In this document: positions 1 to 4,019 of the stretch, one piece after another
Position numbering within the stretch: position 1 is the stretch's first letter
Layout: the number at the start of each line of letters is the position of its first letter
IMG/VR virus record: IMGVR_UViG_2657245634_000018
Direction: 5' to 3' (one strand)
From: a virus
Lineage: Duplodnaviria > Heunggongvirae > Uroviricota > Caudoviricetes
DNA: 4,019 nucleotides
The notes under the pieces: model-generated
What the model was told of the DNA's origin: nothing
Databases searched by the model: none
The model's input: the letters and a program-made list of their open reading frames with translations, nothing else
Program-made: the position numbers and the translations under genes

Positions 1-159
1 GTAATCAGCAAGCGATATACGCAGCGAATTGAGCGGCATAACCTGAATCTGAGGCAGCACCTGGCACGGCTGGGACGGAAGTCGCTGTCGTTCTCAAAAT
101 CGGTGGAGCTGCATGACAAAGTCATCGGGCATTATCTGAACATAAAACACTATCAATAA
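1..159 (+). CDS. insB: IS1 transposase InsB, C-terminal fragment (5' end outside window)
   Basis: Open frame from the window edge to TAA at 157-159. The stop lies inside the terminal inverted repeat, as in IS1. Absent from the ORF track because it has no start in the window. Confidence 0.85.
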
Positions 160-174
160 GTTGGAGTCATTACC
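152..174. repeat. IS1 terminal inverted repeat (right end), 23 bp
   Basis: Direct match by eye to the IS1 terminal repeat; insertion junction at 174/175. Confidence 0.85.
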
Positions 175-459
175 CACAGTGTTATCGTTTTCTAACACAA
201 TGTGAATATTATCTGTGGCTAGATAGTAAATATAATGTGAGACATTGTGACGTTTTAGTTCAGAATAAAACAATTCACAGTTTAAATCTTTTCGCACTTG
301 ATCGAATATTTCTTTAAAAATGGCAACCTGAGCCATTGGTAAAACCTTCCATGTGATACGAGGGCGCGTAGTTTGCATTATCGTTTTTATCGTTTCAATC
401 TGGTCTGACCTCTTTGTGTTTTGTTGATGATTTATGTCAAATATTAGGAATGTTTTCAA
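175..459 (-). pseudogene. Phage right-arm ORF interrupted by IS1 (95 native codons fused to 26 IS1-derived codons; ORF-track entry 94..459)
   Basis: The minus-strand ORF crosses the IS1 junction: its last 26 residues ([26 protein letters not shown]) are the reverse-frame reading of the IS1 terminal repeat, so its 3' part is not native. Position matches a lambda right-arm ORF that I recall being annotated as a putative envelope protein; that identity is from memory. The track start is TTG with no Shine-Dalgarno; an internal ATG (residue 42) has GGAAGG 8 nt upstream, so the true start is uncertain. Confidence 0.5.
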
Positions 460-621
460 TTAATAGTATTGGTTGCGTAACAAAGTGCGGTCCTGCTGGC
501 ATTCTGGAGGGAAATACAACCGACAGATGTATGTAAGGCCAACGTGCTCAAATCTTCATACAGAAAGATTTGAAGTAATATTTTAACCGCTAGATGAAGA
601 GCAAGCGCATGGAGCGACAAA

Positions 622-828
622 ATGAATAAAGAACAATCTGCTGATGATCCCTCCGTGGATCTGATTCGTGTAAAAAATATGCTTAATAGCACCATTTCTA
701 TGAGTTACCCTGATGTTGTAATTGCATGTATAGAACATAAGGTGTCTCTGGAAGCATTCAGGGCAATTGAGGCAGCGTTGGTGAAGCACGATAATAATAT
801 GAAGGATTATTCCCTGGTGGTTGACTGA
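622..828 (+). CDS. Small hypothetical protein (68 aa) of the lambdoid right arm
   Basis: ATG at 622 preceded by GGAG (611-614) at 7-nt spacing; TGA stop at 826-828. Size and position match a 68-aa hypothetical ORF in the lambda right arm, as I recall it. Function unknown. Confidence 0.6.
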
Positions 829-992
829 TCACCATAACTGCTAATCATTCAAACTACTTAACCTGTGACAGAGCCAACACGCAGTCTGTCACTGTCAGGA
901 AAGTGGTAAAACTGCAACTCAATTACTGCAATGCCCTCGTAATTAAGTGAATTTACAATATCGTCCTGTTCGGAGGGAAGAACGCGGGATGT

Positions 993-1187
993 TCATTCTT
1001 CATCACTTTTAATTGATGTATATGCTCTCTTTTCTGACGTTAGCCTCCGACGGCAGGCTTCAATGACCCAGGCTGAGAAATTCCCGGACCCTTTTTGATC
1101 AAGAGCGATGTTAATTTGTTCAATCATTTGGTTAGGAAAGCGGATGTTGCGGGTTGTTGTTCTGCGGGTTCTGTTCTTCGTTGACAT
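993..1187 (-). CDS. Small hypothetical protein (64 aa), possible ribbon-helix-helix (Arc/MetJ-like) DNA-binding fold
   Basis: Complete ORF, ATG at 1187-1185 and TGA at 995-993. Basic N-terminal arm (STKNRTRRTTTRN) followed by a strand-helix-helix pattern (RNIRFP / NQMIEQINIALDQKG / SGNFSAWVIEACRRRL) like Arc-type repressors. Weak Shine-Dalgarno. Coding status not proven: the N-terminal codons overlap an imperfect 15-bp tandem DNA repeat (1148-1177). Confidence 0.5.
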   Translation of the reverse strand: MSTKNRTRRTTTRNIRFPNQMIEQINIALDQKGSGNFSAWVIEACRRRLTSEKRAYTSIKSDEE

Positions 1188-1356
1188 GAGGTTGCCCCGT
1201 ATTCAGTGTCGCTGATTTGTATTGTCTGAAGTTGTTTTTACGTTAAGTTGATGCGGATCAATTAATACGATACCTGCGTCATAATTGATTATTTGACGTG
1301 GTTTGATGGCGTAGATGCACGTTGTGACATGTAGATGATAATTATTATCATTTTGC

Positions 1357-1363
1357 GGGTCCT
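1357..1363 (+). promoter_or_regulatory. cosQ-like element (GGGTCCT) upstream of cosN
   Basis: Heptamer gggtcct lies about 24-30 bp to the left of the cohesive-end sequence, where cosQ sits in lambda. Exact boundaries are from memory. Confidence 0.4.
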
Positions 1364-1386
1364 TTCCGGCGATCCGACAGGTTACG

Positions 1387-1398
1387 GGGCGGCGACCT
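1387..1398. other. cosN: 12-nt cohesive-end sequence GGGCGGCGACCT (terminase nicking site; junction of phage right and left ends)
   Basis: Exact lambda-type cohesive end, preceded by ...gatccgacaggttacg (right-end type) and followed by cgcgggttttcgctatttatgaaaattttccgg (left-end type). Confidence 0.87.
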
Positions 1399-1440
1399 CG
1401 CGGGTTTTCGCTATTTATGAAAATTTTCCGGTTTAAGGTG

Positions 1441-1456
1441 TTTCCGTTCTTCTTCG
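1441..1456 (+). promoter_or_regulatory. cosB R3 element (Nu1 binding site)
   Basis: tttccgttcttcttcg is related to the R-element repeat found at 1495-1510 and 1536-1551, at the expected distance from cosN. Confidence 0.6.
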
Positions 1457-1457
1457 T

Positions 1458-1492
1458 CGTAACTTAATGTTTTTATTTAAAACACCCTCTAA
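1458..1492. promoter_or_regulatory. cosB I1 segment (AT-rich IHF bend site between R3 and R2)
   Basis: AT-rich tract aacttaatgtttttatttaaaa between R3 and R2 with a partial IHF-consensus match on the reverse strand; boundaries approximate. Confidence 0.45.
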
Positions 1493-1494
1493 AA

Positions 1495-1510
1495 AGAAAG
1501 GAAACGACAG
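1495..1510 (-). promoter_or_regulatory. cosB R2 element (Nu1 binding site, inverted relative to R1)
   Basis: agaaaggaaacgacag is the perfect reverse complement of the 16-mer at 1536-1551. Confidence 0.72.
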
Positions 1511-1535
1511 GTGCTGAAAACGGGCTTTTTGGCTT

Positions 1536-1551
1536 CTGTCGTTTCCTTTCT
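1536..1551 (+). promoter_or_regulatory. cosB R1 element (Nu1 binding site)
   Basis: ctgtcgtttcctttct; forms a 16-bp perfect inverted repeat with R2, directly upstream of the Nu1 start. Confidence 0.72.
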
Positions 1552-1575
1552 CTGTTTTTGTCCGTGGAATGAACA

Positions 1576-2121
1576 ATGGAAGTCAACAAAAAGCAGCTGG
1601 CTGACATTTTCGGCGCGAGTATCCGTACCATTCAGAACTGGCAGGAGCAGGGAATGCCCGTTCTGCGAGGCGGTGGGAAGGGTAATGAGGTGCTTTATGA
1701 CTCTGCCGCCGTCATAAAATGGTATGCCGAAAGGGATGCTAAAATTGAGAACGAAAAGCTGCGCCGGGAGGTTGAAGAACTGCGACAGGCCAGCGAGACA
1801 GATCTCCAGCCAGGGACTATTGAGTACGAACGCCATCGACTTACGCGTGCGCAGGCCGACGCACAGGAGCTGAAAAATGCCAGAGACTCCGCTGAAGTGG
1901 TGGAAACCGCATTCTGTTCTTTCGTGCTGTCGCGGATCGCAGGTGAAATTGCCAGTATTCTCGACGGGATCCCCCTGTCGGTGCAGCGGCGTTTTCCGGA
2001 ACTGGAAAACCGACATGTTGATTTCCTGAAACGGGATATCATCAAAGCCATGAACAAAGCAGCCGCGCTGGATGAACTGATACCGGGGTTGCTGAGTGAA
2101 TATATCGAACAGTCAGGTTAA
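1576..2121 (+). CDS. nu1: Terminase small subunit gpNu1 (181 aa)
   Basis: ORF-track protein MEVNKKQLADIFGASIRTIQNWQEQGMPVLRGGGKGNEV... is near-identical to lambda Nu1 as I recall it (about 4 substitutions in 181 aa). N-terminal helix-turn-helix segment; lies directly downstream of cosB. Confidence 0.97.
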   Translation: MEVNKKQLADIFGASIRTIQNWQEQGMPVLRGGGKGNEVLYDSAAVIKWYAERDAKIENEKLRREVEELRQASETDLQPGTIEYERHRLTRAQADAQELKNARDSAEVVETAFCSFVLSRIAGEIASILDGIPLSVQRRFPELENRHVDFLKRDIIKAMNKAAALDELIPGLLSEYIEQSG

Positions 2122-4019
2122 CAGGCTGCGGCATTTTGTCCGCGCCGGGCTTCGCTCACTCTTCAGGCCGGAGCCACAGACTGCCGTTGAATGGGCGGAT
2201 GCTAATTACTATCTCCCGAAAGAATCCGCATACCAGGAAGGGCGCTGGGAAACACTGCCCTTTCAGCGGGCCATCATGAATGCGATGGGCAGCGACTACA
2301 TCCGCGAGGTGAATGTGGTGAAGTCTGCCCGTGTTGGTTATTCCAAAATGCTGTTGGGTGTTTATGCCTACTTCATAGAGCATAAGCAGCGCAACACCCT
2401 TATCTGGTTGCCGACGGATGGTGATGCCGAGAACTTTATGAAAACCCACGTTGAGCCGACTATTCGTGATATTCCGTCGCTGCTGGCGCTGGCCCCGTGG
2501 TATGGCAAAAAGCACCGGGATAACACGCTCACCATGAAGCGTTTTACCAATGGTCGTGGCTTCTGGTGCCTGGGCGGTAAAGCGGCAAAAAACTACCGTG
2601 AAAAGTCGGTGGATGTGGCGGGTTATGATGAACTTGCTGCCTTTGATGATGATATTGAACAGGAAGGCTCTCCGACGTTCCTGGGCGATAAGCGTATTGA
2701 AGGCTCGGTCTGGCCAAAGTCCATCCGTGGCTCCACGCCCAAAGTGAGAGGCACCTGCCAGATTGAGCGTGCAGCCAGTGAATCCCCGCATTTTATGCGT
2801 TTTCATGTTACCTGCCCGCACTGCGGGGAGGAGCAGTACCTTAAATTTGGCGATAAAGAGACGCCGTTTGGCCTCAAATGGACGCCGGATGATCCCTCCA
2901 GCGTGTTTTATCTCTGCGAGCATAATGCCTGCGTCATCCGCCAGCAGGAGCTGGACTTTACTGATGCCCGTTATATCTGCGAAAAGACCGGGATCTGGAC
3001 CCGTGATGGCATTCTCTGGTTTTCGTCATCCGGTGAAGAGATTGAGCCGCCTGACAGTGTGACCTTTCACATCTGGACAGCGTACAGCCCGTTCACCACC
3101 TGGGTGCAGATTGTCAAAGACTGGATGAAAACGAAAGGGGATACGGGAAAACGTAAAACCTTCGTGAACACCACGCTCGGTGAGACGTGGGAAGCGAAAA
3201 TCGGCGAACGTCCGGATGCTGAAGTGATGGCAGAGCGGAAAGAGCATTATTCAGCGCCCGTTCCCGACCGTGTGGCTTACCTGACCGCCGGTATCGACTC
3301 CCAGCTGGACCGCTACGAAATGCGCGTATGGGGATGGGGGCCGGGTGAGGAAAGCTGGCTGATTGACCGGCAGATTATTATGGGCCGCCACGATGATGAA
3401 CAGACGCTGCTGCGTGTGGATGAGGCCATCAATAAAACCTATACCCGCCGGAATGGTGCAGAAATGTCGGTATCCCGTATCTGCTGGGATATTGGCGGGA
3501 TTGACCCGACTATTGTGTATGAACGCTCGAAAAAGCATGGGCTGTTCCGGGTGATCCCCATTAAAGGGGCATCCGTCTACGGAAAGCCGGTGGCCAGCAT
3601 GCCACGTAAGCGAAACAAAAACGGGGTTTACCTTACCGAAATCGGTACGGATACCGCGAAAGAGCAGATTTATAACCGCTTCACACTGACGCCGGAAGGG
3701 GATGAACCGCTTCCCGGTGCCGTTCACTTCCCGAATAACCCGGATATTTTTGATCTGACCGAAGCGCAGCAGCTGACTGCTGAAGAGCAGGTCGAAAAAT
3801 GGGTGGATGGCAGGAAAAAAATACTGTGGGACAGCAAAAAGCGACGCAATGAGGCACTCGACTGCTTCGTTTATGCGCTGGCGGCGCTGCGCATCAGTAT
3901 TTCGCGCTGGCAGCTGGATCTTAGTGCACTGCTGGCGAGCCTGCAGGAAGAGGANNGNGNANCANGGTGTCATCGTCTGCGTCGCATGTTAAGGTCAGGC
4001 CCACAGTATAAAAGAGAAC
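2096..4019 (+). CDS. A: Terminase large subunit gpA (stop not reached in window; lambda-type similarity ends near 3965)
   Basis: GTG at 2096, 26 nt before the Nu1 stop, opens a frame reading (M)NISNSQVNRLRHFVRAGLRSLFRPEPQTAVEWADANYYLPKES... (hand-translated) and remaining open to 4019. Frame checked at 2096, 2813 and 3941. Carries the lysine-containing segment VKSARVGYSKM near residue 76. Not in the ORF track because it has no stop in the window. About 620 lambda-like codons, then the anomalous tail. Confidence 0.93.
   Translation, partial: MNISNSQVNRLRHFVRAGLRSLFRPEPQTAVEWADANYYLPKESAYQEGRWETLPFQRAIMNAMGSDYIREVNVVKSARVGYSKMLLGVYAYFIEHKQRNTLIWLPTDGDAENFMKTHVEPTIRDIPSLLALAPWYGKKHRDNTLTMKRFTNGRGFWCLGGKAAKNYREKSVDVAGYDELAAFDDDIEQEGSPTFLGDKRIEGSVWPKSIRGSTPKVRGTCQIERAASESPHFMRFHVTCPHCGEEQYLKFGDKETPFGLKWTPDDPSSVFYLCEHNACVIRQQELDFTDARYICEKTGIWTRDGILWFSSSGEEIEPPDSVTFHIWTAYSPFTTWVQIVKDWMKTKGDTGKRKTFVNTTLGETWEAKIGERPDAEVMAERKEHYSAPVPDRVAYLTAGIDSQLDRYEMRVWGWGPGEESWLIDRQIIMGRHDDEQTLLRVDEAINKTYTRRNGAEMSVSRICWDIGGIDPTIVYERSKKHGLFRVIPIKGASVYGKPVASMPRKRNKNGVYLTEIGTDTAKEQIYNRFTLTPEGDEPLPGAVHFPNNPDIFDLTEAQQLTAEEQVEKWVDGRKKILWDSKKRRNEALDCFVYALAALRISISRWQLDLSALLASLQEEXXXXXCHRLRRMLRSGPQYKRE
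3955..3965. other. Cluster of six ambiguous base calls (N) at the point where lambda-type similarity ends
   Basis: N at 3955, 3956, 3958, 3960, 3962 and 3965. The interleaved called bases (g, g, a, c, a) agree with the lambda A sequence I recall; from 3966 onward (ggtgtcatcgtctgcgtcgcatgttaagg...) the sequence does not. Confidence 0.8.

Follow-up and report, generated by a model that had tools for sequence, protein, structure and literature searches.

A probable simple IS1 insertion in the ybcV gene of a lambda-like prophage

We propose that a single IS1A-type element very probably inserted, by simple transposition, into the intact ybcV gene of a lambda-like prophage, a proposal that draws on the exact junction between the right end of IS1 and ybcV, on uninterrupted versions of the same locus and on a complementary left junction from a metagenome. 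The stretch of DNA analysed here, hereafter the window (4,019 nt), is the entire draft contig CCBW01000299.1 of the NCBI assembly GCA_000939035.1 (L005). An IS1 insertion in ybcV is an ordinary event of an already-known kind, and the result carries little weight beyond annotation, with nothing new on IS1, lambda or YbcV. Within annotation its meaning is that the ORF at 94..459 should be labelled an IS1-disrupted ybcV pseudogene and not a gene, and that the two ends of the contig are products of assembly, one a break at a repeat and the other a chimeric join, neither of which is biology. Furthermore, the insertion could mark the lineage of the few strains that carry it.

Prophage context of the window

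Judged by its gene content and sequence, the window covers the right end of a lambda-like prophage, with its cos region, from an E. coli/Shigella-type host (Table 1). Rightward from position 175 the order is ybcV (minus strand), ybcW, ylcI (minus strand), cos, nu1 and A, and the lambda-like assignment follows both from the gene order bor-ybcV-ybcW-ylcI-cos-nu1-A and from the high DNA identity to lambda, positions 175-1000 aligning with lambda 47291-48116 at 98.8% identity. With an uninterrupted prophage of E. coli O157:H7 PV15-279 (L001) the identity is 100% over the same positions and 98.6% over the longer interval 175-3954; in that prophage PGAP annotates bor, ybcV, ybcW, ylcI, nohD and terminase, in the order seen in the window. 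Order and strands are likewise as here at the right end of phage lambda (bor - lambdap78 - lambdap79 - cos - Nu1 - A) and in the DLP12 prophage of E. coli K-12 (borD - ybcV - ybcW - ylcI - nohD). The difference lies in ybcV itself, which is uninterrupted in lambda and in 35 phage records, whereas in the window it is broken by IS1. The 12-base sequence at 1387-1398 we take to be identical to lambda cos. In a Pfam profile search of the window ybcW matched no family, and a comparison with Rfam found no RNA family within the window.

Table 1. Features of the window, with coordinates, strand and the evidence on which each assignment is based
Feature	Position	Strand	Evidence
IS1 (IS1A type), 3' end	1..174	+	174/174 identical to annotated IS1A, NCTC9104
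Chimeric ORF, 80 aa: 54 YbcV + 26 IS1-derived codons, stop 94-96	94..336	-	gene callers, three NCBI contigs
Right copy of 9-bp target-site duplication CACAGTGTT	175..183		same 9-mer before IS1 left repeat in metagenome scaffold L006
ybcV 5' remnant (lambdap78 / DUF1398), native codons 1-54 of 136, ATG 334-336	175..336	-	PGAP of O157:H7 locus; Pfam; PDB 2HH8
ybcW (lambdap79), 68 aa, intact	622..828	+	annotated in O157:H7 PV15-279 (L001) and NCTC9104 (L002); lambdap79 in lambda
ylcI (YlcI/YnfO family, DUF3950), 64 aa, intact	993..1187	-	Pfam DUF3950, E 5.4e-20; annotated in O157:H7
cos, 12-base cohesive-end sequence GGGCGGCGACCT	1387..1398	+	read from sequence
nu1 (nohD-like), small terminase subunit, 181 aa	1576..2121	+	Pfam Phage_Nu1 1-164/164, E 4e-100
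Large terminase gene A, intact up to 3954	2096..3954	+	identical to sister contigs L003, L004 (641-aa GpA)

The IS1 end and the breakpoint

The annotated reference IS1A of E. coli NCTC9104 is 768 bp long and its final 174 bases equal positions 1-174, the window beginning 594 bp into the element. A complete IS1 measures about 768 bp and carries insA and insB with a programmed -1 frameshift. Read in frame 1, positions 1-156 are the terminal 52 codons of insB, whose stop occupies 157-159; their translation matches positions 80-131 of the 131-position Pfam profile DDE_Tnp_IS1 (E 6.7e-27), which identifies this portion as an IS1-type DDE transposase, namely the InsB part of InsAB'. The right terminal inverted repeat lies at about 152-174. 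The terminal repeats of IS1 are about 23 bp long and imperfect (GGTGATGCTGCCAACTTACTGAT / GGTAATGACTCCAACTTATTGAT), and 18 of 23 positions match between the two ends of the reference copy.

Alignment to the uninterrupted loci starts exactly at 175, and base 174 is 'c' in the window as against 'a' in the empty site, which reads ...TTATTAA/CACAGTGTT... where the window reads ...GTCATTACC/CACAGTGTT...; the element therefore ends exactly at 174. A preliminary description of this DNA had placed the end of IS1 at that same base, and both the complete identity to the reference element and the empty-site alignment bear it out. The insertion point thus falls between ybcV codons 54 and 55, equivalent to lambda 47290/47291.

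The interrupted gene and its chimeric reading frame

The break lies well inside a longer gene. Intact YbcV runs for 82 codons beyond it (...NTV/LIKGLKK...IFPR) in the O157:H7 prophage, in lambdap78 of lambda and in YdfO, and positions 175-1000 are contiguous with upstream ybcV, with no IS1 at the site, in 992 of 5,426 complete E. coli genomes as well as in the 35 phage records. Since these homologues do not stop at the break, the earlier claim that the ORF marks an interrupted gene and not a natural C-terminus is upheld. Only profile positions 1-49 of the 119 of DUF1398 are matched in the window (Pfam E 7.5e-16), about 47 of the 119 being retained in the 80-aa product, leaving an incomplete domain whose remaining 82 residues are absent from the window. 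YdfO of the Qin prophage, a DUF1398 protein of solved structure (PDB 2HH8), matches intact YbcV across all 136 residues; the window retains residues 1-54 only.

The minus-strand ORF 94..459 that the preliminary description had reported does exist, as a 121-aa longest-ORF version with a TTG start at 459 that joins 285 nt, or 95 codons, of prophage DNA to 78 nt, or 26 codons, of IS1. Its count of 95 native codons needs revision, however, as the native part most likely comprises 54. The credible start of ybcV is the ATG at 336, because five lines of evidence agree on it: in the uninterrupted O157:H7 locus PGAP starts a 136-aa YbcV at the ATG that corresponds to window position 336; the paralogue YdfO aligns to intact YbcV over residues 1-136 (E 1.6e-70); the DUF1398 match sets in at residue 49 when counted from the TTG and at residue 8 when counted from the ATG; ATG 336 is preceded, at a distance of 8 nt, by the ribosome-binding site GGAAGG, and TTG 459 by none; and gene callers produced an 80-aa product on three NCBI contigs, recovered by exact look-up on the window's contig and its two sister contigs. 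The same kind of exact protein look-up returned no record of the 121-aa TTG-start ORF. The fusion is thus most likely one of 54 native and 26 IS1-derived codons. All 26 foreign codons do come from IS1, as had been described, yet only about 8 of them lie in the terminal repeat of about 23 bp to which they had all been assigned; the remainder is the 3' end of insB read in antisense. We infer from the truncation that the 80-aa product is almost certainly a non-functional pseudogene product.

In the RefSeq record of lambda, lambdap78 (NC_001416 47042-47575; L007) is a GeneMark prediction of 177 aa that begins at the same TTG as window position 459, lacks a ribosome-binding site and is named "head protein"; this annotation looks both over-extended and misnamed. 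A literature search turned up 30 papers that mention ybcV or DUF1398, none with either term in its title or abstract.

The left junction and the target-site duplication

IS1 typically duplicates 9 bp of its target, and occasionally 8. The preliminary description had predicted another IS1 end and an 8-9 bp duplication of the bases starting at 175, and both were found, on a scaffold whose sample differs from that of the window's assembly. This scaffold (L006; 638 bp, from the ENA metagenome ERZ28566022) was reached by predicting the ybcV fragment that a 9-bp duplication would leave on the missing side of the element, an 83-aa peptide with the duplicated GTG of codon 54 as its start. Exact look-up of three predicted fragments gave one match, the GTG-start 83-mer, on this scaffold; when the absent 85 C-terminal residues served as the query of a homology search, the wanted fragment was not among the cluster representatives.

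Read in the orientation of the window, the scaffold consists of 575 bp comprising the start of bor, the intergenic region and the 3' part of ybcV, followed by CACAGTGTT and then directly by 54 bases of the IS1 left end, which are identical to the reference at 54 of 54 positions (GGTGATGCTGCC...). The 9-mer occurs once in the empty site, at positions 3001-3009 of the O157:H7 locus (L001), and the 584-bp flank that includes it shows 2 mismatches to that site. When IS1 and one copy of the 9-mer are excised from the scaffold and the window taken together, the empty site is restored. A target duplication of 9 bp is thus present, its two junctions coming from different samples, and the base-exact complementarity across these samples argues strongly that both belong to one allele. 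The duplication, together with the rebuilt empty site, is the signature of simple IS1 transposition.

Under the simple insertion that we favour, one 768-bp IS1A element would have transposed into the AT-rich accessory gene ybcV, situated between the lysis genes and bor on one side and cos on the other, and the staggered cut of IS1 would have duplicated the 9 bp CACAGTGTT. The gene would thereby have been split into a 5' part that reads into IS1 and stops after 26 foreign codons, at 80 aa, and a 3' part of 83 codons stranded on the far side of the element. The genes ybcW, ylcI, nu1 and A, along with cos, would have been left unchanged, and the effect on the neighbouring genes is likely to be little or none.

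Possible effects on neighbouring transcription

An alternative to such a silent outcome is that IS1 has a regulatory effect, either by raising ybcW through read-through or a hybrid promoter, or by acting as a polar element on the late transcript toward nu1 and A; we regard this as unlikely. The reading direction of insB was correctly described at the outset as pointing toward the 68-aa ORF at 622-828, which is ybcW, and this co-directionality on one strand, together with the lack of any predicted terminator-like site on the plus strand of 1-1146, would permit read-through. Section 4.2 and Table 1 of one review (PMC9330008, citing Prentki et al. 1986) document fusion promoters at some IS1 sites, which form when a -10 element lies at the right distance from a -35-like hexamer in the IS1 end. 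By eye, a candidate can be picked out at the junction, with TTGGAG (162-167), a 16-nt spacer and TATCGT (184-189), but with 7 of 12 matches it is weak, and it lies 430 bp from ybcW. A scan for promoters and terminators gave chance-level matches alone and none at the junction: no promoter-like site spanning it reached the scan threshold, and promoter-like sites in the region were at the level expected by chance (4 found versus 3.8 expected). Moreover, the promoter of IS1 itself is weak and auto-repressed by InsA.

From what is known of lambda, the plus strand of the window is presumably already transcribed as part of the Q-antiterminated phage late operon. We speculate that polarity of IS1 on this late transcript is at least as plausible as activation of ybcW, and a Q-modified polymerase would probably ignore such polarity.

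At the other end of the element, positions 1-70 of the metagenome scaffold, in minus-strand orientation, contain the by-eye candidate TTGGCA-N16-GTTAAT, which points away from the left end of IS1 in the direction of bor and the 3' fragment of ybcV; it has 9 of 12 matches, and its -10 has no A in position 2. A weak hybrid promoter toward bor at the left IS1 end is conceivable.

Rearrangement and assembly artefact as alternatives

The same right junction is found in three independent NCBI draft assemblies, GCA_000939035.1, GCA_969827725.1 (L003) and GCA_001373235.1 (L004), and the window and both sister contigs all terminate inside IS1. Of the 5,426 complete E. coli genomes 5,195 contain IS1, which matches at a median of 10 places per genome, and the window begins inside the element only through a short-read assembly break at this multi-copy repeat, which is not biology. 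With the far side of IS1 thus unseen in the window and its sister genomes, the junction might instead be one end of an IS1-mediated rearrangement in which inversion, adjacent deletion or IS1-IS1 recombination separated this IS1 from the remainder of ybcV, from bor and from the lysis genes. IS1 does produce adjacent deletions and inversions (PMC9330008, section 5.2.1), and the exact right junction, searched as the 33-mer at 162-194, had no match in the 5,426 complete E. coli genomes, the GTDB species representatives, the JGI metagenomes or IMG/VR, features that would suit a rearrangement. Nevertheless, we consider this very unlikely: a left junction exists that carries the predicted 9-bp duplication and continues into the 3' part of ybcV and bor, products of such rearrangements lack a direct repeat, and it would be a striking chance for a separate event to have hit the complementary coordinate.

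At the opposite end of the contig a run of Ns occupies positions 3953-3963, within which such letters as remain known fit the normal gpA, and 3966-4019 is a 100% match, over 54 bases, to the unrelated core chromosomal gene yhbQ; the final 65 bases of the contig are non-phage DNA. The two sister contigs run on past this point into intact gpA, W and portal, and the gpA/yhbQ contig end is probably a gap-filling or scaffolding artefact and not a deletion junction. The possibility that the right junction is itself an artefact, a chimeric contig joining an IS1 read-end to prophage DNA, might be raised by this chimeric end, but a break that coincides exactly with the terminal base of IS1, the recurrence of the very same junction in three separate assemblies and the complementary left junction in a fourth data set leave it practically no probability.

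Other IS1 insertions in the region

The allele of the window, a simple insertion in our preferred reading, is represented by three draft assemblies and, for its left junction, one metagenome scaffold, and by none of the 5,426 complete genomes. An independent IS1 insertion in ybcV is present in NCTC9104 (L002 2407-3174), where element, target gene, orientation and the anatomy of the 9-bp duplication are as in the window. The two insertion sites are 187 bp apart, that of NCTC9104 closer to the 3' end of ybcV and that of the window closer to its 5' end, and the duplicated 9-mer differs as well, being AGGTATAGT in NCTC9104 and CACAGTGTT here. The NCTC9104 prophage is otherwise decayed, with a truncated terminase fused to a tail gene.

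Three further candidates for IS1 in ybcV, from the complete genomes of PI24, strain 190 and ETEC6 (L008, L009 and L010), were rejected, the element there lying beside intact DUF1398 genes of Qin-like prophages. One of these IS1 copies separates ynfN from gnsB, another lies immediately downstream of a gnsB-family gene shortened to 44 aa, as compared with 57 aa in the other two strains, and a third is found between the DUF1398 gene and its ybcW-like neighbour.

In lambdoid prophages we count five different IS1 sites, from five lineages, in the accessory DNA that separates the lysis genes from cos, and this AT-rich region appears to be hit by IS1 repeatedly. Its GC content is 34-38% in the target region versus 50-57% in nu1/A. 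IS1 is known to prefer AT-rich DNA, as Zerbib and co-workers reportedly described in 1985 (a paper in the reference list of PMC9330008), and the AT-rich ybcV region fits this known target preference. We give hardly any credence, by comparison, to the stronger claim that the region is a preferred landing pad in which ybcV insertions are selected, whether for the loss of YbcV or for outward transcription that would alter ybcW or bor in lysogens.

Separately, ENA contigs of about 3.5 kb yield dozens of near-identical YbcV variants, 135-149 aa in length; these look like error-laden reads or contigs of lambda control DNA and not natural diversity.
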